This document shows positions 1-63,804 of a stretch of DNA of 64,000 nt, piece by piece. Position 1 is the first letter of the stretch; each line of letters starts with the position of its first letter. The DNA is from Takakia lepidozioides (lineage: Eukaryota; Plantae; Bryophyta). The translations under genes and the position numbers were made by a program. The DNA is taken from contig CM060733.1 in the NCBI GenBank assembly GCA_030704615.1, positions 52,204,001 through 52,268,000 on the forward strand, given 5' to 3'. Under the pieces are notes generated by a model. The model was not told where the DNA came from and did not search any database. It was given only the letters and a program-made list of their open reading frames with translations.

Positions 1-10
1 CCTGCAACTA

Positions 11-33410: not shown

Positions 33411-33566
33411 TCAAACACCTGTGTTCTTTGCTCAGACCATACCCAATCGGTTCAATGACAAATGCTTCATACTCCGTTGGTATTACCAGTGTAGCCCGTG
33501 ACTGTTCCTGTGTTTCTAACATGCAAATCGTGCTTAATGGTTTGTCATGGATACCACTGTATCCCT

Positions 33567-40153: not shown

Positions 40154-41139
40154 TGTCGAGCGGCTTTTACTCACCCATCCCTTCGCTATCCGAGGTGGAA
40201 ACTCCAAGATAGAAGAGTTGGATATCTCTAAGCACTCAGCCCGCTCAGTACAATCAGTCATGACCTGCAGCTAGTGAATCATGGTTGTGCTTCCCATTTG
40301 TATTCCTTCTTGCCTTCATGTTATCAATTTACCTTATCTGATACTGAAGCATCAGATTGCTTCAGTATCTTCTTAGTTCCAGTTAATCATGCATTCATTT
40401 CACAGCTTCACTCATGTCTCTCTACACAGTGTTGCTTGTATCGAATAAGTATCAGATTACGATTTATCAGGTACTAGGCCAATGTCAAGGTGACTCTAAT
40501 CCGCCCTACAGTATCACTACAGCTCTGCATGAAATAGCATCTACTGTTCATCTTTTCTCCTTCTTTCTGCTCTCGTTCTTGCTCTCCGCCTGATCCCCTC
40601 TTCCCCTCACCAAGAACGCTCTTCGTGAACCCCCCTCTTTCCGTTGCCGCCCTCTTTATCTGCCCCCAAGCTGTTCTAACCACCTAACTAATTAACCGTC
40701 ATCCCTGAAGTATACGCTCCTTCTACAGATGTCGTTCCCTCACAGTCATTCCTGTCAATGATAACTGTTCCCAGTACTGTGACAGGCTGTGTCAAGCTGT
40801 GACTGGCTGGTAGGCTGTGAGGGCTGTGACTGGCTGTGTAGGCTTTACGGGCTGTGCGAAAGCTGTGGCGGCTGTGATGGATGTGTCGATGTGTTGGGCT
40901 GTTGGATGTGTGACTGGAGGGTGGAGGGAGTGGTTGTGTGAAGGGCTGTGACGGCTGGTTGTAGGGCTGTGACTGACGGACTGGATGTAAAACGGGCTAT
41001 GTCGGGCTGTGTAAACCCCCCCCCCCCCCCCCAAAGCCGCTGCTGTCACCTAAGGCTCATGTTGGTCTCAGTATGGGTAAAAATTAAGGTACCCCAAGAA
41101 ACCCGTAAAAGCGTTAAAAGTCCAAGCAACCCTCTAACA
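40154..41139 (-). repeat. 5' LTR
   Basis: TGTCGAGCGG...CCTCTAACA on the + strand, matching the split 3' LTR. Confidence 0.93.
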
Positions 41140-41184: not shown

Positions 41185-43819
41185 CACTACAAGAGATGAG
41201 CGTTTTAGGACTACGGTTTGGCGGAGTCATAAAAACTGCACTAGGTACATGACTACAGAGCGCTGAAATGCATTACAGTTTTAGTTTTATGACTTTGTAG
41301 TAATGGATATCACTACATGACTCCGGAAAGTTAGGGAGCATTGGTCAAACATTGTTGACCATGATGACAGGGATGGTTTATATGACTAGTGTGATATGTT
41401 TGACTACACGTGGACGACGTTTCATGGAATCTTATGACTCCATGACTGAAGATGGTTTCAGAGCTCTATTTATACGACTACATCACTACACGTGTCATTT
41501 TGAAGGCACATATAATGCAAATAAGGTTGCCCATTAGGTTTAAAAAAGTTAAAAAAATTGCTAATAAGGTTGCCCATTAGTGTAATCGTGAACAGAAAGG
41601 AGGGCTGGGACTTGGCGTCTTTTTGTCTCCTGCGCCACACCACATAGCTGAGGGATGGAACGCGATGATAGCAGGATATGCAGGGGCGTGGGATGGAGGC
41701 GTTGAGCAAATGATGCACGAAGGAGAAGAGGAGGAAGAGACGACGAGGAGAAAGCGAGCTCGCCGTTCTTGGGAGAGTCAGCTTGGTCTTAGCAAGCGTG
41801 TTTCAATCTCTGACTACTCATCTACGCCGTAGTGGTTCGATCTGACAGACCAATCCGACATTACCTGACTACAGACACAAGCAGCACACACAAGAGGTCA
41901 TCGGTCAAATCCTCCATGGGTCAGGACAGGTCAAGGACAATGTGGTAGGGCACCTTCTTCTTCAACCTATTTCAGCCTGTGTTGCCCTCTCATCAGACTC
42001 GGCCGCAAGATGCATATTGAATTCTGTAAGTTAGGTCGTTGGGTAGATCTGTGGTGGTTTGGAGTGACTTTGGCAAGTTACTGCCAGTGTGGCAGCAGGG
42101 AAGTATCAAAAAACATATAATAGAGGTGAGGAGAAGCTTTGGGGTGAACACTTTCCGACCCCAATGGTGGGACAATGGAGACAAAAAGGCGAATGCCTGT
42201 TGGACTACAGAGAGAAGCAGATGCATTTCAGATTGTGATAAGTAGGGTTGGGGTGTTTTGGGGAAGAACTCCACACCAGTATGGTTGGGGTGTTTGCTGG
42301 TAGAATTGTAGGCTGTCAGAGGCATGGATAGCTGAAGGAGCAGGGATAGAGTGTGGGTCCAGATTCATCCAAGAGGGCTGGATTTCAAGCTCCACATTAC
42401 CTATGATTCCCTGTGGAAGGATAGGTACAAGAAACCTACATGGGTAGATGGTCAACTGGAAGCGGCATGCTGTACTATATGTCATTACTGTACTATATGT
42501 CATTCCAGAGACTGTCATTGTTGGTCCATGTGTTTTACAACAATGCTATCAATATAAGACTCCTGGTTCGCATTGGAAGCTCAATCCCTGCAAGTTCATT
42601 GTGTGTGAAGCTCAAACTTGCGATTTGAAGGATCTTGTAGCCAAGTTCATTCAACCGGAAAGGAAAAATTCTGAAAGCTCCCAAATTTGATGTGGGCAAG
42701 CTTATGGAGGTAAGACTTAGCTTCCCTCCTCTAATGTAAGTGTTGGATAAGTTTCATTTAGTGTCGACCTTCACTGCATATATTGGCTCTTTTCTTGGCT
42801 GGTTTCATATTTTCTTGGCTGGTATGCTGTTGGTTGGCTTCTTTCATTTCACGTGTGTAGTGGAAGGGGAGAAGTACTTTCCTAAGTTCTGCTGCAACAA
42901 TGTCTTTTTCCAGCCTAGATGTTTTCGATGGATACAAATTGAAGTGCTTTGAATGTTGCTGCAATACTATAATAAAGTGGAGGGTGCTGAATGCAGTTGG
43001 CCTTGCTTCGTGCAGGCATAATCCAGGGAAATGTGGACATAGCTGAAACCCCATGATAGCATTTCCAGAGGACGGTGTGGATGGCCTCACAATCCAGCAT
43101 GCAAAATCCATGACAATGTGGAGCTGGCTGAATGGGCAAACAGGTTAAGTGGCGAACAAGCCACGTCACTGGTACATAGTTGCATGCTTACATAGTACAT
43201 GAAAGCGTACTATATGTCATTCCCGAAATTGACCATGTTGGTCCATGTATTTTACAACAATGCTATCAATAAAAGACCAATGGTTCGCATTGGAAACTCT
43301 ATCCCCGTAAGTGGCTTGTGCGTGATGCTCAAACTTGTGATTTGAAGGATCTTATACCCCAGTTCATTGCAGAGGTGATTGGAAAAGACATTGAGAAGGC
43401 AACAGCCGTTATCTATAATCTACAGATCCCCTTCAATTTGATGTGGGAAAGCCGGCTGGCTGGAGGTCTAGTCTCACTTTCACTCATCTAATGTCAGTGT
43501 TGTATCCATTGCAATGTGGAGATGTTTGAAACAACATTGGAGCATTTCCAGAGGATGGTCTGGATGGCCTTTCGTGGCGTGTGCCGAATCCATGGCAAGA
43601 AAACATTGCAGGCAGAACCCATGGCAATGGTACCAGCACGGGTTGGTCCAAAGCCAATTGCAACAACAAATGAATAAAGGGTGCTGAAAGGAAAGCACTC
43701 CATAATTGATCATAAAATCCAGTGTCCAAGCATGATATCTTAATGGGAATGCGAAGGGAGTGTTACCACCTTAAACTATCATGCATGGTCTATAACTGGA
43801 GTGCACAAATCGCGCATAT

Positions 43820-46800
43820 CTAATCTTCATCATCCTCATCTATGTCTGGGTCACTACATGTATCACTGTCTTCATCACAGACTTGATCTTGTCCAAGGGT
43901 TGGCTGAACATCATCACCACGTATACGGGGTGCTCGGAGGTACAAGGAGGCCACCTGCTCTGGAGTAACCGGTACCGCTCGGCTGCATGTTGGGCCATCA
44001 GTAACCACAGTCTCCTCTAGTCTTTGTGGGGCTAACAATCCTTCCACTTCCGCCACATCATCATTATCAATTGATATGTCGCAGACCACTCTACGTGCTC
44101 GGGGGCTCTTCTCCAGGACGACTTTCCACCCCGGCTCCTTCACACAATCAGAAAAAAACACTTGATCAACCTGGCCAGGAAACACAAAAGGTTGCTCAGA
44201 AGGTGGAAGCATACGGTTAAAATTGACAAGTGTGAAGCCAGCATCATCCTGCTTCATTGACATAGGTTGACGACCCACGCGACTCGCCCGTACCCACGAA
44301 CACAAAAACACTATAGGCTGTGTTTGGCCATAGTCAATTTGCAAAATCTCCCTTATAAGACCCACATATCTTGTAGGTTCCTCCATGTCATTGCCTGAAT
44401 TGTTGGTAATGGGCTGGTGCTGGAAAACAGATGAGACTCCACAATCAAAAGACACCATACTTGTTGTGTTCATGCCGGGGGATGTAACCCTGTAATGGTT
44501 ACCATACGCTGTCATACTCTTGAATGACAGGGCAGTAAATGATGGAGGCCTTGAAAGATCCAGTAATTCCTCACGTGTTGTAGGATCAAGCCCATCTGAT
44601 TGAATTGAGAGATGATCCCGTACACCTTGAGGGAGCCACAACAGCAAATGGAGGACAAGGATGCAAATCAGGAGGGTACTGAATTGCCGTGGGATTGCTC
44701 ATGCCTTCCAGCCCTTGCTCCTCACGAAACAAGCGTCGTCTGGCTTCTATCCGTGTGGACTCTGCTTCATATATCCTGTCACAATCCGAGGGTCAGCCAG
44801 GAGATTGACAGAGGTGGCGTGGGAGATTTGAAAAGACGCCATATGCCAACTAATGATAAATGACTAAAACTTGGAAATCTGAATGTCAATGAAGTAGATT
44901 TCTTACCCCAACATGACTGATAGACGAGGATGGTTCTGAATGATGTACTCATGTACAATATCACACAGGTCATTCAATTTTCGGGCTTTAGAACTTCCTT
45001 CCACAACTTCACGTTCCACAGATTCTGCCTCATCTGCATCCCACACCCTTCGTACACTTCCATCAAATCCTGCCATATACTCTGTGCAAAAACCCAATGC
45101 TTCTTCAAATTGGTATCCTTCTGCCATGCTCCCCTCGGGCCTTGCCATGTTTCTTACGTAGCCCTTCATATCTTTCATTGCCCGCTCCATGGGGTACATC
45201 CAACGAGATGCTACGGGCCCGCATAAGTACAACTCATCCACTAGGTGAACAACCAGATGTGTCATCACATCAAAAAATGATGGTGGGAACTCCTTCTCTA
45301 TAAGACACAGAGTGAGAACTGCTTCAGTTCTCAATTCCTCATACTCTACAGGATTCACCACTTTTGCACACAAAATACACGACATACTCGCAAAATGGCC
45401 CTTCGAGGACCACTTGGCATGAGCCCACGGATAGCAAGCGGTATAATTTGCTGCATGAGCACATGATAGTCATGTGATTTCATGCCTGACAACTTCTTCT
45501 TCACCACATGCTTTTTGAAAGCTGATGCGTAGCCTGTTGGCACTTTCAAGTTCTGCACAATCTCCAGAAAGACTTGTAACTCAGCCTCAGTGAGGACATA
45601 AGGGGCAGGAGGCATAATTAACGTATCTGCTCTGTCAGGATCACGTTGTAGCCACAATTCCGGGCGCATCCCAAGTAGCTCCAAATCACGGCGAACTTTC
45701 AATGTGTCTTTCTCACCAAAGATAGTTTTAATAATATTTTCAGCCAAGTTCTTCTCGCAATGCATTGCGTCAAACGTGTGGCGGATGAGGAGACCCTACA
45801 AAATGAACACATAAGCAATTGAGCATTTACTCATCACAATTTAAACAGAAAACGCAAAAATGTACACAGCCAATTTAAAGGCCATGAAGGAATTACCTCC
45901 CAATAAGGTAAGACATATAAAATTGACAATCGCTTAACTCCATGAGTTTTTGCTGGGTCTGTCCTGCTATCTGGCGTCCCTCCGTTTTCCACCCATGCAG
46001 TGCGAGCTGTTGCAAGGTCCTTGATTTGTGTTCCAGTCTGCGTTTTTGGAGGAGTTCCATGCTCAGTAGCGCCATTGAACATTCTTGACCTTCTATATGG
46101 ATGATTGCGGGCCAAAAATCTTCGGTGGCCTAGGAAAACAATTTTTCCACATGTGTGTAACTGCTGTGAAGTCACCCCGGGTCCACAAGCTGGACAACCA
46201 GCATAACCTTTCGTCACTTGACCTGAGAGCAAGCCATATGCAGGGTAGTCATGGATTGACCACATCAACACTGCCCTCAGTGTGAATTCGCGTTGACCAC
46301 GAGGACGGGAAACATCATGAGCTGCAATCCCTCTCCATAGTTCCAATAGCTCTTCCACTAGGGGCATCAGGTAAACATCTACGTTGTCCGAGGTAACAGA
46401 CTCCTTACCAGGAATCAGTAGCGCTAACATGACAAAGAACTTTTTGGTCATTAACCACGGAGGCAGATTGTAATTGACCAAGAGAACGGGCCATGTGCTC
46501 CAACTTGTGGATTGAGCTCCGTAGGGATTTACACCGTCTAAGGCCAATCCAAATCGCAGAGATCGTGGCTCTTCTGCAGCAAAATCCGCAAATGTGGTGT
46601 CAATGTGTCTCCATGCTTTGCTATCAGCTGGATGTCGAACCAACCCATCCTGGCTCTTATGTCTGTCGTGCCATGTCATGAGGTTAGCGATCGATTTACA
46701 TCGGTACATACGTTTCAACCTTGGAATGACAGGGAAGTGTCGCAATACTTTCTTGGGCACACTTCCACGACCTGGAATGTAACGGGAACTGCGGCACACT

Positions 46801-48001
46801 GGGCAAATGTCTACATTCTCATACTCCCCACGGAAGAGTACACAACCACGCTCACAGGCATGAATCATCGTGTACTGCAATCCCATCTTGGCAATCATGG
46901 TTTTTGCTTCATAGTGAGTTTTCGGCAATGAATTCTCTTTAGGCAAAAAACTCTTACGCAACAATCCCAGAAGCTCATCCACAAATGCATTGGTGCACTT
47001 GTGGGTAGTGCATGCGTTCAGCAACGTCAAAGTTGCTTGCAGCCGGCTGATGGAGCACCCTTCAAAAAGTGGACATTGCGACTGTCGGAAGAGTTTATCA
47101 TACTCGGGATCAACGTGCAGGTGAGCATTCTCATCAAATTCATTGTCTCCGGAATCGTCGAGATCATCGTCATGATCGGCAAATGTGTGATCGGTTCCAC
47201 CATGAATGGGGTCCTCTCTGTTTGCATCTGCAAAGAGAAACGCTTCCTGCAATGCACGCTGCATTTCTACCTCCAATCCACCACTCTCATCTGCGTTCTC
47301 TGTGACATTGGGCTCCCGCTGTGCCGCAGGGCCTTCGTCTTCATCATCTGAATATTCACATCCCTGCATCCCAATAGTCATCTTGTGAGTGGACCAACAA
47401 CGATGTGACACTTGTTCATATTATGACATAGGAGGCACGGTGACGTTGCAGTGATGCAGTCATATTTACGTATGTATCTTATGAATATACACCCAATCAA
47501 AACACGACATTTGTAACCATTGAAGTCATAGTTGCAGTCACTTACTTAGTCATATATGACTACATGACTACACATGACCAATGAAAACACGACATGTGCA
47601 TTAATTAAAGTGATAACGGAAGTGGCGTAGTCATAGTCACGTCTGTATCTTATGACTTCTTGACTACAATCACCCAACGAAATGTCGACATGTGGAGAAG
47701 AGGATCGTTGCATTCAAAATTCAAACTAAAGTGCTGAAGGGAAAGTGACGATCTTACCGGAAGAGAACAGCGTTGGAGAAGAGGATCCCTCCCGTGTATC
47801 ATGTAATGATTCCTCACTGTTTCCAACAACAGTACTTTTCCTCCATGACACTCATCGCAGTTGCATAGCATTTTTGTATGCCCATTCCTTGTGGCATAAG
47901 CTTCTTCCATTCGCCATAGACGGTCATCTATTCTACGCCTACGCATCCGTTCGCCACCTGCACTGTACATGCTTTGAACGTCACCCCTTCCCTCTTTGCA
48001 T
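43820..48001 (-). pseudogene. CACTA TnpD/Tnp2 transposase (transposase-associated N-terminus, Transposase_21, DUF4218, DUF4216), multi-exon, at least one frameshift
   Basis: IHACERGCVLF, HPADSKAWRHID, GLALDGVNPY, WPVLLVNYNLPPW, DYPAYG, MHCEKN, MKSHDYH, FFDVMTHLVVHL, RWMYPMER, PFVFPGQVDQVF. Confidence 0.92.
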
Positions 48002-48129
48002 GCTACGCACAGTGCATTGTCTCTAGTTTTGCACCAGCTGCCAATGTGCTATTTCTATATCTATAGTATACTATAAGTATCGTTTCTGAGTGTCCATGGT
48101 GAAGCGGAAGGTCTTCGAAGTGACAGTCC

Positions 48130-51100
48130 CTCTCACTGAGTACGAGAAGTTCCGAGAGCGCCGGATTGCTGCCATAAAGGAGGTGGAAGCAACGTTCAAG
48201 CAGTCGATAGATGGGTGAGTTTAGTTCCTGACTTTGGATACCCACCCACTAAACTTGCGATTTGCCTTATCCTCTAACCTTCCTACAGCGATCATAAGCT
48301 TCATAGCACAAATGGGGGCGAGTAGCTGCGACTTGTACAAACAGAGAGGCAAACAACATGCAGTGAGTGACGATTAGGTTTGAGGAGGGTGTGTCATTAG
48401 GCGGGAGATGTCCGCCGTCATTCGTGGGCAGCCATTACGTCCTGGTAGGGTGCGGCTGTGGTTCAGCGTAGGCTTAAGAGTATTAGGGTATGTATGCTTA
48501 CATTTGTTTGTGATTGTTTGAGAGGGAGGTCATGGAGGTGTTTGTGCAGGCTTGCGGGAGCGAATCGCCCTCGCAAGCCACGCGCTCCGAAGGAAAAAGC
48601 TAGGGATCAAGGTCCTGCAAGGCAAAGTGCCAGACTGAAGACGATGAAGACTACGATTCTGCATGAGGGCTCTTCTGAGGACGATGAGGACGATCCACTC
48701 CTCCCACGCCAGTGCGAGGCGAGTGAGTGCGTCGTCGGCGGATGCCACGGCAAGCCGAGGAGAACATGCCCATGCTCATGTCGCAGGACAAAAACGCCCA
48801 TCATCTACACTACGAACACCTTCTCCGTCTGTGAGTTATAGTTCTTCACAATGACCATGATTCAAATATGTATGTTTTTGGTAAAATCACGAAGAGATAG
48901 TATGTTTGTGTAAGATCACGAAGAGATAGGGTATGTCTGTCAAGACAGGGAAGTTGGACAATGCAGGGGTCAGCCAAGGCACAATCACAAATGATTTCCA
49001 CTAGACAAGTTGAAGTGCCAAAGGCATGATGTCAGGCCAATGTAGACTTCAGGTGTGTTCAAATTCTTTGCCCCATGAAACCAACGTCCTGGTACTAAGC
49101 TACAATGGCTACTTATAGAGATACTTGGGTTACTTATGCACCCAGAATATCAGTAAAACTTGGAGGGATACTTCTCATGGACCCATCAGGTTTGTCCATT
49201 TGAATTCTTGCTATGGATTTCAGGAACACCCCATACCTAAGAGGGCTCAAAAATGTACTGGGAGGACATCATTGGGGCCAATCAAATTTGGGAGATTTAC
49301 TGCCCAAGATCATACTGAGTTTTGGGTAATCTTGTCTTTACAAATGATATGTGCTTCCAGTTTGTTATATTGAATTCAAGGATTTGCTGCTTGCTGCCTA
49401 TATGTATGTGTAATCACCCACATTGTACTGGGGGAATTTCTTTTCAGGGCAAGCACAAGCGCACTGGATCCACGATCCCTGCTGCTAGCAATGGAGATGG
49501 CGCCCACAAGAACGCAGGAGGTGGCCCTAACTCTCCCAACGTTGTGGGTTCTGTGCCACCAGTACCCCCACCTTATTATGGTATGCCTCAGTACCCACAG
49601 TCTGGCACTCAGTATGGTCAGGGTCAATATGGTGCTCCTCCATATGGGCAGTATGGCCAGTATCCTCCTCCACCATATTTGCCACCCCCTAATAGCTATG
49701 GGGGTGGCAGGCCACCGGAATATCCTCCTGCTTATGGACAGTATGGCCAGTATGGTCCTCGGCCTTCTGGCCAACAGCCATGGCCACCAGTCCCTACTTG
49801 GCAGGATCCTGCTTTGAATTCTCCTGAGCGCACGGAGGTCTCTGAAGGAGGGGAGGGTGCCGTTTCAAAGAATGATAGAACCAATGCTTTAAGGAGGGCT
49901 AATAGCTCAGCCAAAATTGAAGACTGCCAAGGTGAAGGAGAGAGAGAGAATAGCTGCAGGTCTTCCTCCCACGGTGATTTTGACGAACCTCAAAGGAGCC
50001 CCGTATGGTCAGACCCGGAATGTATGGCACGCTGCCCTTAAAGGACAGGCTTATCGCAAGCTAGATTGTTCCCTTGCCATCAACAACCAACCTGATGAAG
50101 TTGTATACGAAATCAGAGATCACCTGGCTAAGCTATTTTCATATACGCCACACAAGTTAAAAGACTTCCACCTAAAACAAACAATTGGCAGAATAATGAA
50201 GAGCCAGCGTTATGAAGCACACACTGCGTGGTTGGGTGGTAAGGGGAAACCCATTACTGTATCTGACGAGGTATGGAACAAGCTTGTAAGTTACTGGCAG
50301 ACAGAGGTGTTCCACAAAGTGTCGGGCAACATGAAGAAGGCAAATGGTGCAATTCTGAATCCTACCAAGACTGGCCGTGGTGGGAAGGCAATGGTGGAAG
50401 CACGCTTGGTAAGTGGCATCATCACGACTCTGTATTTTGTTCCTCATTGAATTGCTATGTGTATATAGTCAGCCCTCACATTGCTTACTGACTTGTGGCA
50501 TGGGTTTGTTTGTGGCATGGATTAATTTGTAGGAAACACTATCAGGGTGCCCTCCTACATTATATGAAATTCAAGAGGGTTCAGTGTCACGGTTGTCAGC
50601 TGGGAGTGACAGGCGGGTAAGTGTGTTTTCCACGTTTGCTAGAGTGGTTGCTGCATCATAGGTTGCTAGGGTTTTTTTCACGGCTTTTGGCCTGGGTTTT
50701 CTTTCCAATGGTTGTTCATGCTAGGTTTTTTGGTTTGATTCATACTTGGGCAAGTTTTCATGGATTGGCAGGAGGGAAGTCTCGCATATTCTACAGTAGT
50801 TGGCAGGATGGATGGCTTGGACAAACTGGTGGAATCACAAGGACGTGACATGGCAGAATTAAAATTACAGATGCAGAGTATGATTGAGTACCAGAAAGCC
50901 ATTGTGACCAGATTGGGGATTAATCTACCAGGCGCAGGACCAGTGACATCTACGATGGATACGTCTGCTGTGACAGTATCAAAATGTTTGGAATCCCAAT
51001 TTCAGACGGTAACTGGTGCTCACTCTAAGCCCTTATGTCTTCCTGTCACTGATGATCTTTTGAATTTGACCGAGCAGCAGCAGCAGGATACAGGGAAGGC

Positions 51101-52706
51101 CAGCTGTGAGGTACACGTGGAAATTCAGCCCTTGCCACGTACAAAGGCAGTAGCAGTCCAGGGGGCAATGGTGACAGAGCCGCCGGGCACACCGGATTCT
51201 GGTATGCAGGTATGTGGGAGTTTAGATGGGGAGGAAGATGCAGACGGGGACAAAACAAACAAGCAGGTTGCTTTAATTTCTCCTGCTCACATGTTGAAGC
51301 CAAATGTCAGTTTACTTCCTGGACCAACGAGGAAGCATTTACTAATTCTGGACTTAAATGGTCTGTTATGTGAATCTTTTCATTCTGCTAATGGGCCTGC
51401 ATCCCTTCCCAAAGGTTTTGTGGGGAAGATGTGTGGCAAGAAGATGGTAGTTTTGAGACCACGCTGTTATGACTTTTTGCAAAAGTGTTTTGAACACTTT
51501 GAGGTGGCGGTGTGGTCTTGTTGCCAAGCTCGCAACTTCTTCCCAATGGTGGACTATATTTTTGCAGCCCACACTAACCTGGTTTTCCAGTGGGATGCCC
51601 TTCACTGTGACGAGGATCCAGTCCTCCCATGCCGTAAGGGGTCTGATTCAAAGCCATTATATTTCAAGAACTTGTCTACAGTGTGGGCAGACTGGCCAGA
51701 ATGGACTTATGAGGACACTGTTCTTGTTGACGACACACCAAGAAAGGCGGCAAACAATCCTCCCTTCAGTGGGATTTTTCCAGAGCCATGGAAGGTGCAA
51801 CCAGATTCACCAACTGATGAGTATCTAACAGAGGTGTTGTGGCCTTTCTTGTGGAAGGCATCGAAAGCTGCCAGTATTCCCAAGTTTTTGGAGTCTCAGC
51901 CTGTTTTCGGACAACAACCATACAACACTGCTACTGTGAAGGTACAAACATTCTGACAGTGCTCCAGAGGCTACAATTTTGTGGGTTCATTCATTGCATT
52001 GCTTTCCTGGATGCTTCTCCTCGGTTGCTTGATTAATGCTAGGTTTTCTTTGCAGCTTTTCATGTTGGCTTTTTTTGTTTGATTCATTACTTGGATTTTG
52101 TTCTATTCACTATTCCTGTTTGCTCATTGCTTTCCTGGTTGTTCTCTGGTCTGTGACACAGGAACTTGTGACAAACAAAGGTGATATTGTCGACAAGCCG
52201 GTACAGACGAGGGGCAAGAGTGTCGACCCGGCGAGTAGCCCCCCAAAAGAGGTCTCACCACCACTGGAGACTGCAAATGGAGTAAGTCCAGGCCGTTGTC
52301 TTGTTTGTTTATTTTTTCCAACCTTGGGGCTCTCTTTAATTCGCAAATGTTGAGTGTCCTAGTCGTGTGTATGTCATGGGTTTTCACATCGTGTTCTTTT
52401 TTGTGTGGAGTTGGGATCACAGTTCAGGGTGGGTGACGAGGTTCGGCTGTTGGATGTGAACTCCAAACGCAAGAAATGTGGAGTAGGGCTGATTGTTGCT
52501 CTTCAAGGTGCTGTGGTGGGTTACGGGTACCCTGCTGTGCCCCTTGATTATGCCTGTGTGTACATCAAAGAGGCATGTGTGTCAGTAACACCCCTCTACC
52601 ATATGTGAATGGTGTTAGGAAACAGACCGAGTTGGGGCAGGTGGTTGGCCAGACAACACTTTGGAGTCTAAAGTTACTGAAACTTATGGAGCTGCGGAAG
52701 GGATAG
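48130..52706 (+). pseudogene. CACTA TnpA-like multi-exon gene: Pro/Tyr/Gly-rich region, Ptta/Transposase_24 region, FCP1/NIF-like HAD domain, C-terminal Tnp1/DUF8039-like domain
   Basis: VWNKLVSYWQT..SGNMKKAN..TGRGG (49917-50450); LLILDLNGLL..LRP..VAVWS..LVDDTPRK..NP (51330-51930); GVGLI..YACVYI..TPLPY..ELGQVVGQTTLW (52422-52706); GT/AG junctions. Confidence 0.75.
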
Positions 52707-53279
52707 TCAGTATTGCACTGTTTAACAGAGTTCTTGATTCTAATAGCACTAGAACATACTAGCTACAACAATTCAGCCCATGTGTGGGCTTGCTTGTTTT
52801 TGGCTGGGCCTTTTGAGGCATGGATTTTTGACCTTGTGGCTTTTGAGGTGTCCATTGGGACATTGGTCTCATTTGGATTTTTGTAATGTGATTTATAGGG
52901 CTTGTATTGCCCTGTAGTTGACTATTTTCATTCTCCTTGTGGTTGATAGTATGCAGGAGGGATCCATTCTGTTTTCATGTTGGAATTTCACCATGTAATG
53001 AAGATTTTAAATCATTTAATTCACTTTCATTTTAAATAATAATATTAAAAAAATCCAAGGCTGCAATCTCCCTGTTCTTTTAAATATTAAATGAAAACTA
53101 AAAAATAAAATATGAACATTAAAAATATAAACTATTTCGGAAAACAATCTTGATGACACGTGGCATCACTCTTGCTCAAACCAGAACACGTGGCAGTATA
53201 TGACACGACATTCTTTATCCATATTTTCACCACGTGTAAAGATCCGTAGTCATATATGCTAGTCATATATTTTGTCTGT

Positions 53280-53600
53280 GTGCCACATGTCACATCTCAA
53301 GTGCAACAGGTGTCCCGCTAACAACTCTCCATGTATGAGCGATCATGTAGTCACCACGTGTGAAATCTGCCATAGCACACGTGTCTCGCTAGCGCCTCTC
53401 CATGTAGGCATCACTGTGCACATGTGTCATATGATCATGGCAAGAAGTCGTGACATATTCGCAGTGGCGCACGTGTCATCGTCGCCTCTCCATGTAGGCA
53501 TCACTTTGCAGACATATAGTCATATGATCCCCTGACGAATGCATGACGTGTCGCTTGTGCAGTGGCGCACGTGTCCCGCTGAAGCCTCTCCATGTAGGCA
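53280..53600. repeat. CACTA subterminal direct repeats (about four units)
   Basis: Recurrent CACGTGTC....GCCTCTCCATGTAGGCA. Confidence 0.8.
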
Positions 53601-53905
53601 GCGCAACAGACAATGTAGTCATATATTAGTCATATAATAGTTGTGACTGCAACCCTCTCTACAGCAGGACTCCAGGTGCCACGCAAGCAGTCACGGATAT
53701 GACTTGCAAAACGCAGTCCTAAAGACTAGTTGCTATGACAGGGATTGTACTACAAACTCTATAGACCAGAGGCTGGGTACAAGAGTAGCCCCATAGTAGT
53801 CGTCGTCTTGCAATCTGTGAATTGAGTAAGGGATCTATGTGTTTGGTCTCATAGTAGCTTGGCCTTGCATTTCTTCTTAGCCTTCCATGGTTGTATCCAC
53901 TCCCA

Positions 53906-54047
53906 CTATCCAATGCAATGCGGACATAACCAATCCCCATCAGGAACCATCTCAAGAGGTGGAGTCAAGCATCCCATATGCAACCTCTAGAGCACGATCA
54001 CACACCAGCATGGTGGCTGCCCCTCTAGCAGACCCACACAACATGCA
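53906..54047 (-). pseudogene. PHD finger at the integrase C-terminus
   Basis: CMLC..ATMLVCDRCSRG(W)HMGCLTPPLEMVPDGDWLCPHC* (C4HC3) after repairing two 1-bp frameshifts. Confidence 0.88.
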
Positions 54048-57000
54048 CCTCAAACTTGCAGGACCACTGCCAGGTTTGGAGTCAATCCTGCCATCAAACA
54101 TTCGGAAGGTGACATGGCGCGCAATACGCACATGGTCCTTCCAAGTCATGCCCATCCCGACCCTCCAAGATCAGGACGCCTAAGGGCAATACCTCTCGAA
54201 CCCTCAAAATAACACGTCATGCAGTCATATCCAGGGTCGTTGGAGCAGTCTGCTCTGGATAAACATAGTCACCAGGGTGAAATCTCCGAACCCCATGACG
54301 ATAGCCCCACACCGTATGGTAGCATACCCAACATATCACGATGTTGTTGTGCAATGACAAGGTTCTCGAAAGCCATGGGCATGACTTTCTTGAACAACTC
54401 CGCACGTTGACCACATGCACGTGCCCACACGTCCGGATTGTCAAGATTGAGGACTACTGCAGCCTCCCTGCGAATAGATGCAGGCAAATCTGGCTCTCGG
54501 CCAAAGAGAAAGAAATAAGGCGAGAACGAGGCAAGTGATGCTTGCTTGCTGAACCTGTAAACCATGGCTAACCAGGGTAGCTGAAGGTCCCAATCTCCAA
54601 GCCATCGGCCTCAGGATGATCCCGAGAAGTGGTGCGGTGGTCTATCAAGGCCTTGTCACACAACGCCTGAAACTCCCCCAAAAACTCTCTCCCTTGATCC
54701 TTGAGTGAGTACCTCAGCTGGAGCACCGAATCGGCTAAGTACACAATCCAAGAATGCATACGCAGCTCCCTCACTAGCCTTATCAAGCAATGGAACCAAC
54801 TCGATCCACTTGGAGAAGTGCTCCACCATCACCAACACGTTCTTGTTGTGGCGCATGGTCAGTGGCAACGGCCCTGCGAAGTCAAGACTCCACATGTAGT
54901 CCAATCCCATGATCGGAAGAGGGTGCAATTGTGGTGTAGGGGCGTTGAATGAAGCACGCACCCTGTCACACACCATGCACCTAGCCACAAATTGTTGCAC
55001 CTCTGTGTGCATACCACGCCACCAATATTGCCCCTGCACTAGACTATGAGTGCGTCGCACCCCAAAATGCCCCAACTCCTCATGGGCATGCCGCACTAAC
55101 CGTGCCCGCCCGTGTGTTGGGTGAGGCACAATCCTCACTCGACCATCCTCCCACACTCGGAGGAGGTGTGTCCCCTCCCATGAACCTCTTGGCTCGTTGT
55201 AGGATCCGATCCCTCTATTGGCAGTCACAGCGGTTGTCGTGTCTCCAGTGCGGAGATATAGTCCAACACAGCTGAATCCTCATGTATATTTGGCGCCACC
55301 TTGCTCATTGCTGGCCTCAGGGTCCTTAGACACTCGGTCTACAGTCATCCCTGTTGTAGGTCCAACCTGGCCTTCCGCTGCCAAGATATACAGAAATGCA
55401 GATGCATGCCATCCGGGCACCATCTCCTCGTCTGTCTCACCATGCCACCGAGCTCCAGTATCATCCTAATGGCTCGTGCATGGATTGCGACTCAACCCAT
55501 CTGCATCCCGATTGACCAAACCCGGTCGATGCAAAACTGAAAGTCATACTCTTGAAGTATGAGTGCCCACCGTGCAAGCTTCCCGTGCTTGTCTGACTCC
55601 ATCACCACTTGAGTGGCTGGTGATCCGTGATAAGAATGAAGAGATTACCGTATAGATAGCACCTGAAGTGTGTCACGGCCCATACTGTAGCTAAACACTC
55701 TCCCTCATATGAGCTATATTTAGCCTCTATAGCGTTGTTCGAGCGGCTAGCATAAGCCACTACGAACTCTTTTCCCTCATTATCCACCTATGTGAGCACC
55801 GCTCCAAGCCCCAGCATGCTCCAATCTGTATGCAGCTGAAAAAGACGCCCCTTGATAGGTCGTCTCAAGATGGGCGCTGAGGTCAACCTCAACCGCGCCT
55901 TGAGCTCTTGAAAAGCTCGTTCTTGCTCATCTGCCCACTGCCACTCTTTGTCCACCTTGTCAGCTTGGTTACGCTTTTGCTATGGCACTAAATCCCTTGA
56001 CAAACCGTCTATAATAGTTTGCCAACCCCATGAAAGCTCGAACTCGGTTCACATCCGTGGGGCGTGGAATCTGTGCAATGGCCTCTACCTTAGTCTGTTG
56101 TACCCCCAATCCTCCAGGATATATCATGTGACCAAGAGACTCAATCTGGTTGTGGAAAAACTTGCACTTCCCCGGATGTAATTTCAATCCGTGCGCCCTC
56201 AAGCGCTCAAATACCACCTGAAGGTGTCTCTCATGCTCCTCCACCGTAGCACTAAAGATGATGATGTCATCTATGTAGCACCGAGCAAACTCCACCCTGC
56301 TAAATCCTGTCTATGACTCTATGAAACTTTGCAGGAGCGTTCTTAAGCCCAAATGGTAAGAACCGCCACGGTATAGGCAATCCTTCCCATGCTCATTGAT
56401 CCCCAGAATGCCGTCTTCTGCTTATCCGCCTCTTGATTGGCAACTGGTGATATCCGGATCGTAAATCCAAAGTGCTAAAGACCTTGCATGCCAATGGCAT
56501 CAAAAATCTCCTCTGGTGTTGGCATGGCATACCTATCGGACTTAGTCTGACGATTTACAGGCCGGTAATCACCGCACATCTCTCTCCGTCCAATTGCCAT
56601 AGACCTCCTTCTTGGCTGGCATCACTGTGGCTGAAGCATACTCTCCTCCAGATAGCTCCACCAAACCAACCTCCCAGAGGTCCTGAGTCCTCATCTGAAT
56701 CAAGGACCTCTCCATGTCAGTGTATCTATAGGGTCTCCGATTGGCGTGTCAGTGGCCAATTCAATGCGAATCTCTTGACCCTTCAGTGCTCCCAAGTCCT
56801 TCAAACTGAAGGCAAAATAGTTCTTGTCAGCCCTCAAGAACCGCCGTATACGTCGTCTCTCTCCTCCGGTGACTATGGGTCCAACATCAGGCTCCCAGTT
56901 GTCCTCCGTGTTGAGTCCAACAGGCTTAGAGGTAGAAGACGTGTCTCGTGGTTGCTATGCTGCAACCTCTTGAGCAGTCACCACAACCTGCTCTATCAGT

Positions 57001-57259
57001 GACAATGCCTCATCCTGCCCCATCATCTCCTCCTTGTCTTCCTCAACCCGAGAAAAATCCCCAACCTCATCCATCACCGCCGCCTTGGTTGCCAACTCCC
57101 TCTGAACCTCAAGCACCTCCCACGTGTGCCATGGATACGGCCTGCACCTCGTGGTCCTCACCTGTTCGCCCCCACTCGCTGCCTGTACCGTCTCGGTAGG
57201 CAGAGAGACCATTGAGGGGAGTGAACTCCGTACTTTGCGCTGCTCAGCCATAGCTAAGC

Positions 57260-58205
57260 TGATAATCCAGGTCAAGCAATTGAGATCCATTGCTTGCCCC
57301 AACACCTGACGACTTGATGCCTCAGAAAGAGATGGCACTGCCGTGGTACCAGTGGTAAAACCCATCGCTTGCTCGCGCTCGTCAGCATTGGGCTCCACTA
57401 ACTGTTGCAACTAGCTATCCTACAAGAGGCCTGGTCCACCATCCCGGAAAGCATGAGATCCTGGAAAGCTGAGCAGTGTAGGCAATGCCGCTCGTGGGTG
57501 ACCCATCTTATTGACCATTGCCAAAGGTGATCGGTCATCGTGTCTCATATGCTGAGACTGCCTCCCTATGTCCAAAATGCTATCCACCGTCAGGTTTGGT
57601 GGCCGCTGCACCCCATCAAATGCACGCTTGAGCAGCGTAGGTGGCATCAAGTTGGTCCACCATAGTTGTGGGCGATGAGCCCGTGACCCCACTGCAGCTG
57701 CATCCAGCAACACTGCTAAACCAGGCCAAGACCGCACTTGATGCACACTGGCCATCACCTTGGCCCGATAATCACCCATCAATGGCACATTCTCCAAGAT
57801 ATATGCCGAGGAGTCTGTCTGCTGAAGCTGTAAATAGCGCAGGACCCTCAACATCTCCCAAAACAGACGTGACCTTGAGTCTTGTAATCCATTGCCATGT
57901 CCGGCTGATGAATGCCCTTGGCAGGGCCAACCTGCCACTACCAAGTGAATAGGGCCAACCCGCTCCAAATCATGCGCCCCCAACAAAGAGATGTCTGCTG
58001 GCAAGGCTTGTTGGTATCCACGAACTGCAGACACTGGCAACAAATCAGGGTACTGCTGCACCAACTGAGCAACATGGCGTAGTGAGACGCATCGTGCAGT
58101 CTCATCCATCTCCACATCCAAGTAACGTCAAACTCGTACACCTGCCTGCAACACTGCAGCCAATCCAGTGTTGATCCCGCCAAACAAGTCCAGAGTGCAT
58201 ATGCC
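57260..58205 (-). pseudogene. DNMT3-type DNA (cytosine-5) methyltransferase domain inside pol
   Basis: Motif I LDLFGGI, IV GWPCQG, SRLFWE, VI YILENV, VIII DAAAVGSRAHRPQLWWTNL, IX/X EREQAMGF..TAVPSLSEAS.RQVLGQAM; only in-frame nonsense codons interrupt it. Confidence 0.92.
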
Positions 58206-61200
58206 TTCATCCGGACACTGCCATACAAGAGGTGTGATGTCCAATGGTGACAACTGAGGTGGTCCTGGTGCAATCACCACACTCTCCTCCTCTCCTGACG
58301 GTACAAAGGCCTCTACCCATGCTTGTTGCATCCGTCTATCAGCAGCCTGCTGCAAATCCTTGCTCGTACCCCTCAATGGAGTGTGAGCAACCATGGTAGG
58401 CAACTCCGCCATACCATGCATGTCATCTTGCTCTGCTGGAGGTGGCACATCCTCTGCATGGGCATTGCCCTCCAGCAACTCTCCAAACCAACTAACTGCA
58501 GCTGTGAAGGCTGCTAATGTTGGCATCTTGCCCTCCCGGGCAGCACCAACACCCCCAGTGAATGTTACAGGGAGCTGTACACGACGACCATCCCCTGACT
58601 GCTATCCAAGCATGTAGGATGCTGACTCCTCCCAAAAATCCAAGGTGAAACCCATGGAATACAACACTGCCCCACCAACGAGGACATCGTAAGAGACCGC
58701 GTCTGTCACAATGGCCTTGGCTCGCATCATTGAGCCATCTATAGGATGATCCGACTGTAGTCTAATGGCCAACTCACGCCGTGTCATGCTCCGAGCCTGC
58801 TCTGATCCTCCCAGAGATGTCTGTATCTGGAAAAGACAAGGCTCCATATCTGTCTCCATGAGGCCCAAACCTGCAATAGCAGCTCTGCCCAACATCAGTG
58901 GCTGAGCTCCCGAGTCCAACAAGACCCGCAATGGCCGGTATCTCTTGCCTGCCGGTCCACTCAAAGAGTAAATGTCATCCTAGTTGTCTAACAAGACAAC
59001 TCTAGGTGTCACCATGGCGTGCTCAAAGGGTGGCCTAGCTGGCAGCTCCATCAACCTGGCAGCCGCAGCTTGCCATGGTGCAGCCGTGGCAGTCTTGACC
59101 CTCAAATCCGAGGATCCCTCTGCCACTATACCTTTCACTAACTCCGCAGAAGATGAAGTGACCTCCCCACTCTCACAGAGTGTTGTTGCTAGTCTGAACA
59201 CTGCAGCTAGTCTTACCCCCGGCGTTGCAATCATGGTTGCCGAGAACAGTGGGGCCTGACACACAGAGGTGGCTGCCCCCAACAACACGCTGGCTGCACT
59301 AGCCTTGGCAGCAGGTGTCAGTGTTGCACGTGTAGCTCTTCCCAATGGCACAATAACGGCCTCTGCTTCGGTATCCGTCGGGCGAGAACTAGGTGCCATG
59401 GATGTCGTTGACCCTGTCTCTGCCAAGATGAATGATTGAGGCAACCTAGCTTGACGGCTTGCCTCCCCACGCTATGGATCCAACTCCACCTCTGCACCTC
59501 GTGGCTCAGGAACTCGTGCTGCTCCTCGAGTGACGGCTGCAGCAGACTCCTCCTGCACTAGTGGTAGTGCTGCCCCACACATAAATCCCATGCCTCCCAT
59601 GTCTCCTTCGTCAAGATGACGTTGTTGAGGAGGAACAGGAGGTGGACCCTCAGGTCTTGGAGCTGGTACCACCTGAGCTGTGGCCATGGCAGCAAGCCGT
59701 TGCTCTAGCTGCTGAAGCCGGTTGGCCATGCCTTGGTCAACACCCTGACCTCCACGTCCTTGGCCATAATGTGCTTGCCCTCATCCTACACCTTGTGCCT
59801 GACCACCTCGTCCTCTCTGAGGTGCTCCACCTTGCCCTCGGCCACCATTGTTCCCTTGGAACTGGCCTTGCCGCAACTCAGGGTGCAAGTCATAACACTG
59901 GGCATCTCTATGCCCATACTTGCCACAATGCCCACACTGCAACTGTGCAGGCTGTGCTTGTGCCGGCCCTTTGCCACTCTCTAGGCAATCTTTCTTGATA
60001 TGGGGTCCTCCACATGTCCAACATACCACCCCTGGTTGTTGTTGGCCTGCAAAAAAAGCTACTGGCCTCTGCACCTGAGGTCCCCTGTAAGTTCCATGGA
60101 ATTTGGATTGGGCAACCTTGCCCCCCTGACCACGCTGTTGGGCAATCTCTTGTGCCTGTTGGCTGGCAGCTGCGCCTCGTGCAGGCATGTCCTTGCCAAA
60201 TCCAATGGTAACAACTCTCTCCTCCACCATGTTGAGCCCAATTCGCTCAGCCAGCAGAAACACATCTGCTAATGTGGGTTTGGCCGCTTGTAACAGGGTT
60301 GCATCCCGCACCCTTCTCCTGAGCTCCTTGTCCAAAATTCCATACTAGAACTGGACTACCTGAGCTTCAGTAACCCCTTGGGTCACATTTATCAAGCGCC
60401 TCATACGAGTGTAGGCCTCTCGCAAGCTCTTACTAGATTTGCGCTGGAAGTCTTGCAAACTTCGCAGCTTCTCTGTCCGTATGCCTTGGTAGTTCGTCCA
60501 CAACTCCTGGAAGAACTCCACCACCGGGTTGAATCTAGGTACATGTGTTGTAGAGTGGCAGGAGGAGTAGTAGCACCTTTTGAACTGGTACCACCTGTAG
60601 AAGTACCGACACTACTTGTTTCACTACTAGTGTTGGCAGTGGGAGATATTGGTGCTGATGCAGTTATTGGTCGCATCGTGCCTCGAGTAATGGAGACGTA
60701 GTCAGGTGACCAATACATCCTCCACTCCTCAATCTCTGCTTCATGTCCTCGCCTGAACTTGTGGTAATCGTCCATAGGCGGGCCTTCCAAATGCTGGAAC
60801 AGTCCCTTCCACGCCATGAATGGGGTGAACAGCTGTGGATTGCGCATCTGCTGCAAATCACACCAGCTGTCGAACTCCTGGATAAAGTCATCCAGTTTGA
60901 TCGTGCCCACAGCTCCAGTGTACCTACGAGGCTCCTTGGTAGCTCCATACATCTCCTTCACGTCGTCTCACAATAATGGCGAAGAAAACTGCACACCAGT
61001 TGATGAAGCCTCTGAGTCTGTGTCAGACTCTACACTAGTTGAGGATGGAGGTGAAGGTGGTCTGAACCAAACACCTCGTCTTGTGAACCCACTCTCACTG
61101 CTACTGCCTGTAGCCGTACTCCCCTCAAAACCCTTGGGTAACTCCGTGATGACACTCACAACGACCCGCACCTCCCCCACGTGACACTATAAGGCTCTAC

Positions 61201-63029
61201 TAGTACTAATTCTAAAAGTGACACGGGTGGGCACCTGTTGCAGTTTAAGGGTCATATCCCAGTGGCTCAGGGCACCTGCACCTGCATCCACCGCAAGAAC
61301 TCCTATGGTTGGCTGGTCATCAACCCAGTCTCACCATAGAAGAAACACTGGTGGTCTTGCTGGTCATCACTCCAGCCTCACCACCGACAACATACTCTAG
61401 GATTGACCGGTGATCAAATCCGGCCTAATCCCTATGAAAGCAAGCGCCCACACAAAACCAACATGGCGCACAATCAAGCATGCAGGTATTGGGGGGGGAT
61501 CCAAACCCAAGAAATCAAAACATCAACACCCCCACACCAAAATCCATCTGCAGTGCTGCTCCTGCAGAATACCCCAGCCCAAAAACCCGGACTGACTCTT
61601 GCCTCCACCTATGGAAAGGTTTTGGCCTACCGAGAGGGTGGAAAGCTATAGGAAGGAGAGATTAAAGCAATTCCTAAACCTAGCATGCCCTCATCCCGAC
61701 ACTCTTCATTTCCTCTCTAGCCATACACTAATGTCAAAAAGTGACAGATGTGTTACAAACAGACAGCTAAGTGATCATCCCTGACTTTAAACAACTTCTT
61801 CAATAGACCTCAAATAGATGTGGGAAGGATCTAATTTACATTAGAAAAATTCTATAGATTTTTGGTCAGGTCCAAAAAACTAAAACTAGATTTTCGCATT
61901 CTGTAGGTCCCTGCGCAAGTTTTGGGTCAAACAGCCTTGGTATGCCAAAGTTATGGCCAAACAGGCTCTATCTAATTTAAATTAGATCAAAGAATGAATT
62001 TCTTTAATTTTTCACACCCAAAACATTCTCGACATTAAAAGCTGCTCCCAAGTCATCTACGAGTTCCCAACACGTCCATGTAGTTCTCACAGATTCCCTG
62101 GATTTCACCTACAGGTGTTTCAAACATACACCAGTGAACTGCTCTGCTCCAGCCAAGATCTGTAGGTATGCCGACTCCGGGGGTTTGATCCTTCGCATCC
62201 ACTCCATCTAGCACATCCTTCCATGCCACACTTGACCACATGCCTCAGGGAAGCAATCTGAACAGCTCCAACTTTGACCACCCACAATGAACTCCTTCGC
62301 TCTTCATCAGGGCTGCCAAGCTTCTATTGCAAGCACATGTAAATGAATTATGTGGAGCCTGAGTCACACATCTGCCCCTTCAGTTGATCACTTGTCTATC
62401 AAGGCATTTTCCCACACCTAAGTGGGTTATACCCTCCTTCACCTTGCTGTCCCACCACTAGGAGAACTTCATGAGATCAGCCACAACTATCTCATACCCC
62501 GGGGTTGCACTACATGTGAGGTCCACCAACATTCGGCTGTCCCTTCCATTCACACCTTGCTGGGCATACCCTGTGTTAATCACACTCCCTCAGACCAGAT
62601 TTCAGCCATGTCATCAGTCGCTCCAACCTTCTCTATGCTGCTGCAACTGACCAGTACAGTGATTAAACAGCTCGAGGTGCTTGCTTCTTGAGATCCCAAA
62701 GCCCATCAGATCTGACCAACATGATCATAGACATACCCTTTGCCGTCATCCAACAGGTGGAAGCTCAGTCTCCTTTATGTCCTGACCTCAGGTTCGCAAT
62801 CCGCACACTATCCATTAAATTTGGCCTGAGTCAGCTCTTCCTTCAGCAACTTGCTGGTTCCTCACACAACTGTATCGCTGCCCGCAAACCCATGCTAGAC
62901 CAAGTGTGAATTGGCTGTCTATGCACAAAGTGTCTGCCACAATGTAGCCGCTTGCACAAACTGAATAAGGCCTGCGTGAGACAGTCGTCTTTATTTTTCA
63001 TTGTTCTTAGCCGCTTGGCAGCCTGATTT

Positions 63030-63170: not shown

Positions 63171-63685
63171 CCGATTTATGTCTTATCAACGCTTCTTCCA
63201 AGAGCGATTTATCCACTGATCAGTACCAAAAATCGCAACATTACATAGAACTTTGTTTTCTTGCGGGAACCCAGGGGTGCAATAAGCTGTTGGCTGGCTG
63301 CCGCCTTGTTAAACGGCCCACCTGCGTAACTCTGCCCATGCTCTCATACACAAGCTTGCATAACCCCAGCAAGCTACAATGCCATCTTAGAGCAAACTGA
63401 GCTGCAGCCGAAATAGTATCCGTGCCATAACGATCCTCAAGCTCGGCCTGACCTGGTTCTCCATTTCAAAATATTATTTTGTATCGACAGGAACAACCTC
63501 CAGGGAGTTTGCCAAGCTGGTGGGAATCTCTTAAACTATTCCCCCAAGACCAAGAAAATGTGACATTGCTGCTGGGCGGCTACAGCCCGCCGCTTCACTA
63601 ATCGACCAACTCCAGAATGTTGCCACGGCCTGCTTTGCTTCTGCATCGGCATATACATCTATACACAATTTTTATTTTTATTTTA

Positions 63686-63804
63686 TCGGTGACTTCGGCA
63701 GCTCCCAGAAAGTCCACAATTTGGTGCTCATTGATGGGCAGCGAGAAGAGGTATATCTGCTCCAGACTAGACTTGATCTTCCCGTCCGTAACCAACCTCT
63801 CGAG
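63686..63804 (-). pseudogene. RPS2: 40S ribosomal protein S2 (uS5) gene fragment
   Basis: [33 protein letters not shown] resembles [31 protein letters not shown]; no flanking exons. Confidence 0.8.

Follow-up and report, generated by a model that had tools for sequence, protein, structure and literature searches.

Does a land-plant retrotransposon carry a cytosine methyltransferase as a regular part of its coding region, and what would the element use it for? The question is raised by a decayed Ty3/Gypsy element with a DNMT3-like domain, which lies at 53747..61890 on the minus strand of a 64-kb stretch of Takakia lepidozioides DNA (the window, meaning this whole stretch). Its 3' end is lost and its 5' boundary is approximate. 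We call this element the window copy, and related loci and proteins elsewhere its relatives. Published work is cited here from those parts of each source that were accessible; in these parts, a Gypsy-borne DNMT3 is in print from one charophyte alga. The same lineage occurs in many Marchantia polymorpha models labelled as hypothetical proteins. The window copy is dead and truncated at the 3' end. It adds another host lineage, and its relatives add a programmed stop codon, as read from sequence comparison, and an anatomy of split terminal repeats.

The methyltransferase domain and the element that carries it

The domain occupies 57222..58256 on the minus strand and is identified by motifs, Pfam, solved structures and predicted fold. 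Motifs I to X are read in linear order (LDLFGGI at 58173-58193, GWPCQ at 57918-57932, SRLFWE, ENV at 57786-57794, AHR..WWTNL, E.E..MGF and RQVLGQAM), and Pfam DNA_methylase matches with E 4.7e-10 (39.8 bits against a cut-off of 22), which bears out the complete C5 cytosine methyltransferase catalytic domain proposed by a first-pass annotation made from the letters alone. The solved structures closest to it in sequence are DNMT3A/B (2.8e-10, versus 1e-3 for M.HhaI and 7e-3 for DRM2). The AlphaFold model, built with a 51-row alignment, reaches a pLDDT of 95.9, and Foldseek gives DNMT3A as its best match (E 7e-19, TM 0.70/0.84); all 33 among the matches listed are DNMT3A/B/C entries. The same annotation had called the domain DNMT3-like and not permuted as in DRM, and both sequence and fold agree. 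DRM identity is ruled out by the linear motif order, since the motifs of DRM are permuted. No host-type accessory domain was seen beside the element methyltransferase, and there are no introns. The ESM Atlas, which was covered for clusters with at least 50 members, returned just generic C5 methyltransferase clusters, the nearest large ones being phage C5 methyltransferases.

To place the domain in a family, we searched proteins with it (717-2282 aa, 7989 candidates) and obtained 45 matches. The named ones are 14 Marchantia polymorpha models (60-75% identity), Sphagnum fallax (46%, a gapped model), Klebsormidium nitens (45%) and Closterium (42%); the Marchantia cluster has 18 members, and further relatives include Calypogeia fissa (66%), a second Closterium and a Scenedesmus protein labelled “pol”. 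The kinship with charophyte elements suggested earlier is thus real, and the Klebsormidium model has the same domain order. A library-wide search with the domain gave 1814 matches at E 1e-3 and 67 at 1e-30. We classed 219 proteins, in which the domain stands before the reverse transcriptase (RT) in 15, with the protease only in 45, after RNase H (with RT) in 57 and with the integrase only in 20, while 82 are too short or otherwise unclassed. Metagenome contigs contained 140 relatives, the best 80 of which were used (66 distinct copies at a 97.5% cut). Where the flank was long enough, the protease lies directly upstream of the domain in 52 of 59 loci and the RT directly downstream in 51 of 64. 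Because this arrangement recurs across loci, the methyltransferase is a family-wide trait.

Phylogenies of the domain and of the RT, which the first-pass annotation had proposed as a check, recover the same land-plant group and the same split of architectures. The domain tree is a quick one (LG+G4; 94 of 169 rows after thinning of distant groups; no host DNMT3 outgroup), and in it the window copy, Marchantia, Calypogeia, Sphagnum and close others form one group (SH-aLRT 99), within which five sampled loci join Sphagnum fallax (100) and locus L002 joins Calypogeia (99). The RT/RNase H tree has 42 rows, with the second Gypsy element of the window (33211-39410) as outgroup and a bootstrap that had not fully settled; it shows the same land-plant group (98/90) and separates the order protease-methyltransferase-RT from the order RNase H-methyltransferase-integrase (100/100). 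In both trees, as they stand without a host DNMT3 outgroup, all rows with the former order lie to the same side of a branch with full support. Since the two trees agree in group and in architecture, the domain and the RT have travelled together. Marchantia pairs with the Sphagnum-like family and not with the Calypogeia-like copy (80 in the domain tree; 98/94 in the RT/RNase H tree), which could come from old paralogous lineages or from transfer between bryophytes.

A sister group, which has its own branch in both trees, comprises about 55 proteins together with P0060, P0222 and P0046 and has its methyltransferase placed between RNase H and integrase, in many cases along with a PHD finger. The Scenedesmus “pol” belongs to this group, as probably do other chlorophytes; no description of it was found in the accessible parts of the literature examined.

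The window copy itself is decayed. Three decay stops fall within its domain, and the same codons are stops in 3 of 77, 2 of 70 and 0 of 70 related loci; the second arginine of motif VIII is also lost in this copy. Across the 80 loci the catalytic Cys is kept in 79, the Glu of ENV in 74 and the Asn in 77, and GWPCQ, ENV and motif VIII are all present in 27 of 28 hand-picked Gag-protease-methyltransferase proteins. Between the window copy and the Sphagnum-like family, synonymous differences in the domain (pS 0.75) are saturated and nonsynonymous differences (pN) are 0.22, compared with 0.18-0.21 in Gag, 0.32 in the protease, 0.17 in RT, and 0.15 in RNase H and integrase. A pN close to that of Gag and below that of the protease, with pS saturated, argues for long-term constraint on the domain. 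The CpG ratio of the domain (0.48, versus 0.47 in a pentatricopeptide repeat (PPR) gene of the window) is uninformative.

The rest of the window copy, all on the minus strand, has the Gag-protease-RT-RNase H-integrase order of Ty3/Gypsy. The N-terminal part and core of Gag, with one frameshift between them, lie at 60200..60967 (58-77% identity to related loci; Pfam Retrotrans_gag E 0.004, below cut-off). Two zinc knuckles, CX2CX3HX4C and CX2CX4HX4C, are read from the translation at 59870..60050 and are kept in related loci; a Pfam scan of them in the window copy at E 0.05 gave no match. An aspartic protease with LDSG follows at 58602..58979 (Asp_protease_2 E 0.007, below cut-off; 52-59% identity to the closest relatives). 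Downstream of the methyltransferase we found the RT at 55969..56873 (RVT_1 E 1.1e-13; YIDD at 56266-56277; several frameshifts), RNase H at 55602..55961 (RT_RNaseH E 3.2e-19) and a frameshifted DDE integrase with H2C2 zinc domain and core at 54269..55150 (Integrase_H2C2 E 2.5e-16; rve E 1.1e-4, below cut-off), so the assignment to Ty3/Gypsy stands. The C-terminus of the integrase carries a PHD finger at 53909..54070, which the first-pass annotation had missed and which is split over three frames; its distal half matches Pfam PHD with E 1.1e-5 (25.8 bits versus a cut-off of 24), and the finger is unbroken in locus L029 (E 1.3e-10). The first-pass annotation had read the fragments from 60335 to 56955 in one frame broken only by single nonsense codons. 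A common frame is right from the Gag core through the knuckles, linker, protease and methyltransferase to the first RT residues, where a single frame (60611 to 56700) has no frameshift and nine in-frame stops before closing at 56702, but frameshifts break the Gag N-terminus and everything from RT onward.

At its 3' end the window copy meets the subterminal region of a CACTA transposon at a break point placed at 53608..53747, where the sequence matches 26170-26315 at 88%; the latter segment runs on into a terminal repeat, and the CACTA end at the break point is without that repeat. In relatives, a polypurine tract follows about 90 nt beyond the position of the cut, as estimated by eye. A self-search of the window that included the element ends found no pair of long terminal repeats (LTRs). 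An 11-nt inverted repeat at 61988/61838 was considered as a primer site and set aside, being of doubtful meaning: it overlaps an AT-rich palindrome, and sequencing depth has already fallen there.

Eight sequencing runs from five studies share part of the stretch, each at most 0.46 of its words, and depth was taken from four of them; no RNA run is listed among those that share it, which says nothing about expression. In run X1, summed contig depth is 4.5e5-1.1e6 over 53836-61517, 5.5e3 at 61852-62185 and 4e2 beyond. Over the methyltransferase domain it is 4.8-6.8e5 in X1, and in the four runs examined the domain has depth of the same order as protease and RT, about a thousandfold above the flank at 62186-62500 (summed contig depth, which is not a copy number). 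Variants occur at single sites across up to 100 contigs in these runs. We take the depth only as a sign of an abundant family that includes the methyltransferase domain.

A conserved stop between methyltransferase and reverse transcriptase

One of the stops in the long frame differs from the others. At 56949..56957 on the minus strand the window copy reads TAG CAA CCA, in frame with RT, and the stop at 56955-56957 is not a product of decay. In 44 of the 48 loci that have the start of RT, or 39 of 43 once near-duplicates are removed, the identical codon is a stop with CAA after it. As to the exceptions, inspection shows the stop in L069 and L080, it is lost in L034, and L047 carries an insertion; the distant L067 stops at the matching place. 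Decayed codons elsewhere, in seven domains, are stops in at most 35% of loci. Since the same codon is kept far beyond this maximum, the stop is best read as programmed and as a conserved feature of the family. It also qualifies the earlier view of the methyltransferase as part of one polyprotein: the domain does lie between protease and RT, in frame with both, but the stop divides Gag-protease-methyltransferase from RT. The first open reading frame (ORF1), as judged by the comparison of loci, is therefore Gag-protease-methyltransferase.

Protein models are in line with this division. The Marchantia models (1278-1281 aa) and ten other proteins (1252-1451 aa) end soon after the domain, while P0029, P0196 and the Klebsormidium model P0040 continue into RT. 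A search for polyproteins longer than 2283 aa gave six distant matches at 37-38% identity and none close, which fits a programmed stop weakly.

RT, RNase H and integrase are likely to be made by readthrough of the stop. CARYYA after a stop is a published readthrough signal (PMC3441728), and it is matched exactly in the window copy and L002. The motif itself speaks against this explanation at two points: most Sphagnum-like copies have TAR CAA CCC, which is not an exact CARYYA, and a decay stop of the window copy at 58604 fits CARYYA by chance. Because of the latter, the evidence for a programmed stop is its conserved position and not the motif. Splicing or reinitiation could also express Pol in place of readthrough. 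The Sphagnum-like family has an ATG two codons past the stop; this ATG is absent from the window copy and L002, which makes reinitiation less likely.

Split terminal repeats and possible roles of the enzyme

The ends of the element can be read in complete Sphagnum-like copies, the window copy being truncated before the polypurine tract. These copies start with a 337-bp repeat A (TGTCA...), and after the coding region there is the polypurine tract, followed by a 115-bp repeat B and then by another A and another B. The form A-coding-B-A-B is found in L035, L044, L073/L075 and L074, and in L016 without its 5' part, while ten other Sphagnum-like copies stop at the first B (A-coding-B). A 4-bp target duplication is exact in 7 of 10 loci with two ends and holds at three of four bases in the other 3 (6 of 9 exact, as L073 and L075 are one insertion). 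In L006, L016 and L044 the palindrome GACAGCTGTC forms the B|A junction, and other loci have mutated versions of it; the palindrome contains a symmetric CAG/CTG site, and a CG lies just upstream. At the A|B junction, the end of A is joined directly to bases found 3' of the polypurine tract. No B precedes the 5' A repeat in any of 27 cases, and the mirror form A-B-A-coding-B was never seen.

In these relatives priming appears to be internal. The 11 nt that lie 3' of the first A are the complement of a site within A, which is found about 30 nt past a TATA box. The match is exact in 5 of 19 loci, the best or second-best site reaches 9-10 of 11 in nine more, and it was not recovered in five. There is a second, weaker site further downstream, and no tRNA-type primer site was evident by eye in the relatives.

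Ordinary reverse transcription would place B-A at both ends, and a circle made by joining these ends and opened at the primer-side B|A palindrome would yield exactly A-coding-B-A-B. On this layout, we think it slightly better than an even bet that the true LTR is B+A and that integration proceeds through a two-LTR circle opened at the B|A palindrome. Circular retroelement cDNA is usually regarded as an integration dead end; the combination of split repeats and target duplications suggests that circles are integrated routinely. Cutting of palindromic circle junctions has been reported for the integrases of foamy virus and HIV-1 (PMC2884000). Three origins are conceivable for the A-coding-B form: a one-LTR circle, a double cut, or recombination of the B repeats at a later time. 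LTR finders that need paired terminal repeats would miss such elements, because the repeats are split.

Two observations stand beside these. In a rearranged copy (L050:12461-13357 and L051), a partial A is followed by bases of the primer site and these by B; the copy has an exact 4-bp target duplication and may have arisen by aberrant joining of ends. L013:220-1773 is a Gypsy RT-RNase H-integrase segment with no methyltransferase seen in its contig, which branches just outside all methyltransferase-bearing elements in the RT tree; it is a candidate for asking whether the split repeats predate the methyltransferase domain.

What would the element gain from the enzyme? We incline, with modest confidence, to a role inside the particle, in which the methyltransferase is made with Gag, packaged and freed by the protease, and then methylates the element's own cDNA ahead of integration. 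Placement in ORF1 would give the enzyme at Gag-like abundance and Pol (RT-RNase H-integrase-PHD) would arise by occasional readthrough, so that the programmed stop predicts many methyltransferase molecules per RT in each particle. New copies methylated in advance might resemble host chromatin or evade surveillance of naked DNA. The B-A ends of the cDNA would be joined to a circle, which the DDE integrase would open at the palindrome where B meets A; the PHD finger may direct integration toward a chromatin state. For SymbioDIRS-Dnmt3, whose domains perform de novo CG methylation, methylation of cDNA was proposed by the authors (PMC5890265).

Several points count against this account. Within the decayed Sphagnum-like family, with L002 and L067 excluded as separate lineages, dN/dS is 0.59 for the domain and 0.64 for the protease, versus 0.35 for RT and 0.34 for RNase H; these values show no strong constraint on the domain, and decay after insertion inflates all of them. 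The Klebsormidium domain produced no methylation in a yeast test, which was inconclusive as human DNMT3B failed too (PMC5890265). Enzyme activity in the land-plant members is predicted from sequence and fold, release by the protease is presumed, and the terminal repeats are not visible in the window copy's own family.

The methyltransferase may instead act mainly on chromosomal DNA, i.e. the insertion site, older copies or competing elements, and thereby damp transposition or shape host methylation. This is unlikely but deserves to be taken seriously: expression at the level of Gag, as the stop implies, would leave free enzyme in excess of what the particle needs, the PHD finger of the integrase points to chromatin engagement, and models of insertion-site action and host benefit are raised in PMC5890265. 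However, the domain itself lacks a targeting module, as the PHD finger is on the integrase, past the stop, and the methylome of Klebsormidium, which has such elements, is not unusual (PMC5890265).

It is more doubtful that the domain is kept for something other than DNA methylation, such as nucleic-acid binding or a scaffold function in the particle, or methylation of the element RNA. The inactivity of the Klebsormidium domain in yeast (PMC5890265) would suit such a role, as would a high stoichiometry if the function were structural. But lineages with saturated synonymous sites still share the catalytic Cys, ENV and motif VIII, and the fold is DNMT3-like, not DNMT2-like, among solved structures.

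We consider it quite improbable that the methyltransferase acts on one of the two identical B|A palindromes of the two-LTR circle, marking or shielding it, so that the integrase cuts the primer-side copy only and A-coding-B-A-B, the form able to replicate, results. The absence of the mirror product would follow from such marking, the symmetric CAG/CTG and the nearby CG would offer sites for it, and the split layout occurs together with the domain both in Klebsormidium, according to the accessible text, and in the Sphagnum-like family; yet the asymmetry could also stem from where each palindrome lies with respect to the primer site or polypurine tract. Extended to a whole life cycle, i.e. a green-plant-wide Gypsy lineage, abundant to this day in land plants of bryophyte grade, with DNMT3 at capsid stoichiometry, integration through two-LTR circles in place of linear cDNA and a methyltransferase that chooses which palindrome is cut, the scheme would be a long shot, and the link between the circle route and methylation is its weak step. 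If true, it would be a new retrotransposon life cycle and would give, for the first time, a mechanistic reason why a transposon keeps a methyltransferase.

Finally, we reject as extremely improbable that a host or microbial methyltransferase gene was inserted just once into a Gypsy copy, or that the arrangement stems from misassembly or from contamination with algal DNA, since the domain order and spacing are repeated in dozens of independent loci and in named Marchantia models, a contig from a separate study with the same organism label (X8 record 27) covers 55181-57329 from the integrase region through RNase H, RT and linker into the last 108 nt of the domain, a land-plant PPR-DYW gene lies in the same window, and viral contigs gave short partial matches only, to phage-like methyltransferases. 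The first-pass annotation had named what might undo its reading, and we found none of it: the domain has a C5 methyltransferase profile match, other copies carry it, and contamination and misassembly were examined with the result just given. Action on the element's own cDNA is the role that we favour.

Surroundings of the element and comparison with known systems

The window contains two facing PPR-E-DYW RNA-editing factor genes at 2-865 (plus strand) and 3440-6439 (minus strand), about 90% identical over 911 nt; the longer one has five 303-nt repeat units, and PPR-like remnants lie at 62267-62603. The PPR-E-E+-DYW protein has 999 aa, and the taxon-named ones among its best 120 matches are all land plants (7985 candidates scored, with a ranking that favours long repeat arrays), in agreement with the land-plant genome that had been assumed from the letters. 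The PPR matches of highest identity are labelled “Gb”, which we take to be Ginkgo, and are not decisive. A quick PPR tree groups the gene with Calypogeia, Sphagnum and one Diphasiastrum row (SH-aLRT 96), which is weak and not decisive. From the window alone the host would be a land plant, probably a seed-free one, and as judged from the element it differs from the host of the Sphagnum-like family, given the saturated synonymous sites between the two.

The transposon next to the window copy is a CACTA/En-Spm element at 43820-53746 (Transposase_21, DUF4216, Transposase_24), whose right terminal repeat is missing and which holds a 405-aa open frame with a NIF (FCP1-like phosphatase) domain at 50739-51956. 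The second Ty3/Gypsy element at 33211-39410 has no methyltransferase seen in it and is strongly CpG-depleted (0.2). There are also long inverted repeats (28120-28551 and 41217-41512), an exact 279-nt direct repeat (25651-25929 and 40154-40432) and LINE-like RT and zinc-finger fragments, judged from translation, at 23268-25663 and 10479-11231. A short frame at 63598-63804 (minus strand), without a Pfam match, presumably resembles ribosomal protein S2 and is perhaps a piece of a pseudogene.

As to what is already published, PMC12344493 and bioRxiv 10.64898/2026.05.21.726589 cite Gypsy-DNMT3 in “streptophytes” as previously described, and their trees could include land-plant rows. The accessible parts of PMC6453930 and PMC8885841 hold nothing on a land-plant Gypsy-DNMT3, and the literature searched, with most subscription papers outside it, contained no report of the family in land plants, of the programmed stop or of the circle route. 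Relative to that literature, the presence of the Gypsy-DNMT3 family in land plants is new. Marchantia polymorpha is genetically tractable, so the role of a transposon-borne methyltransferase becomes directly testable; besides, element-borne domains may confound counts of plant DNMT genes.

Compared with known systems, the element shares with host plant DNMT3/DRM the DNMT3-type catalytic fold and motifs (Yaari et al. 2019, PMC6453930), but its domain is intronless, lies within a retroelement ORF and is linear, unlike DRM. Tcn1 and Tf1-sushi chromoviruses also replace the tRNA primer by self-priming, as our relatives do, and occur in seed-free plants (Neumann et al. 2019, PMC6317226), whereas the present element has a PHD finger, a methyltransferase cargo and split repeats; the word “methyltransferase” is absent from the main text of PMC6317226, and no chromodomain match was found in the C-terminal pieces scanned (L029 and the window copy). 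SymbioDIRS-Dnmt3 and the EpiLTRs are likewise retroelements that bear a cytosine methyltransferase (PMC5890265; bioRxiv 10.64898/2026.05.21.726589). However, the EpiLTR enzymes branch as sister to DNMT4 and are accompanied by a DAM domain and a chromodomain (bioRxiv 10.64898/2026.05.21.726589), and DIRS elements use a tyrosine recombinase, in contrast to the DDE integrase (H2C2/rve) here and the 4-bp target duplications of the relatives, by which a DIRS/Ngaro identity is ruled out.

The closest system is KnitGypsy-Dnmt3 of Klebsormidium nitens, with DIRS-like repeats (A-coding-B-A-B) and Ka/Ks below 0.2 (de Mendoza et al. 2018, PMC5890265). The host of the window copy is a land plant, and the land-plant group forms a separate branch in both trees. 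In KnitGypsy-Dnmt3 the domain is placed in the Pol ORF (PMC5890265), and in P0040 it is continuous with RT, whereas a stop closes Gag-protease-methyltransferase here; target duplications, self-priming, a palindromic junction and a PHD finger go unmentioned in the accessible text of PMC5890265. On the other hand, both are Gypsy elements with an intronless, non-permuted DNMT3-like domain that has its catalytic residues, the Klebsormidium model P0040 has the order protease-methyltransferase-RT-RNase H-integrase with a domain 45% identical, and the A-coding-B-A-B layout of the alga is also seen in the Sphagnum-like relatives L035, L044, L073/L075 and L074.

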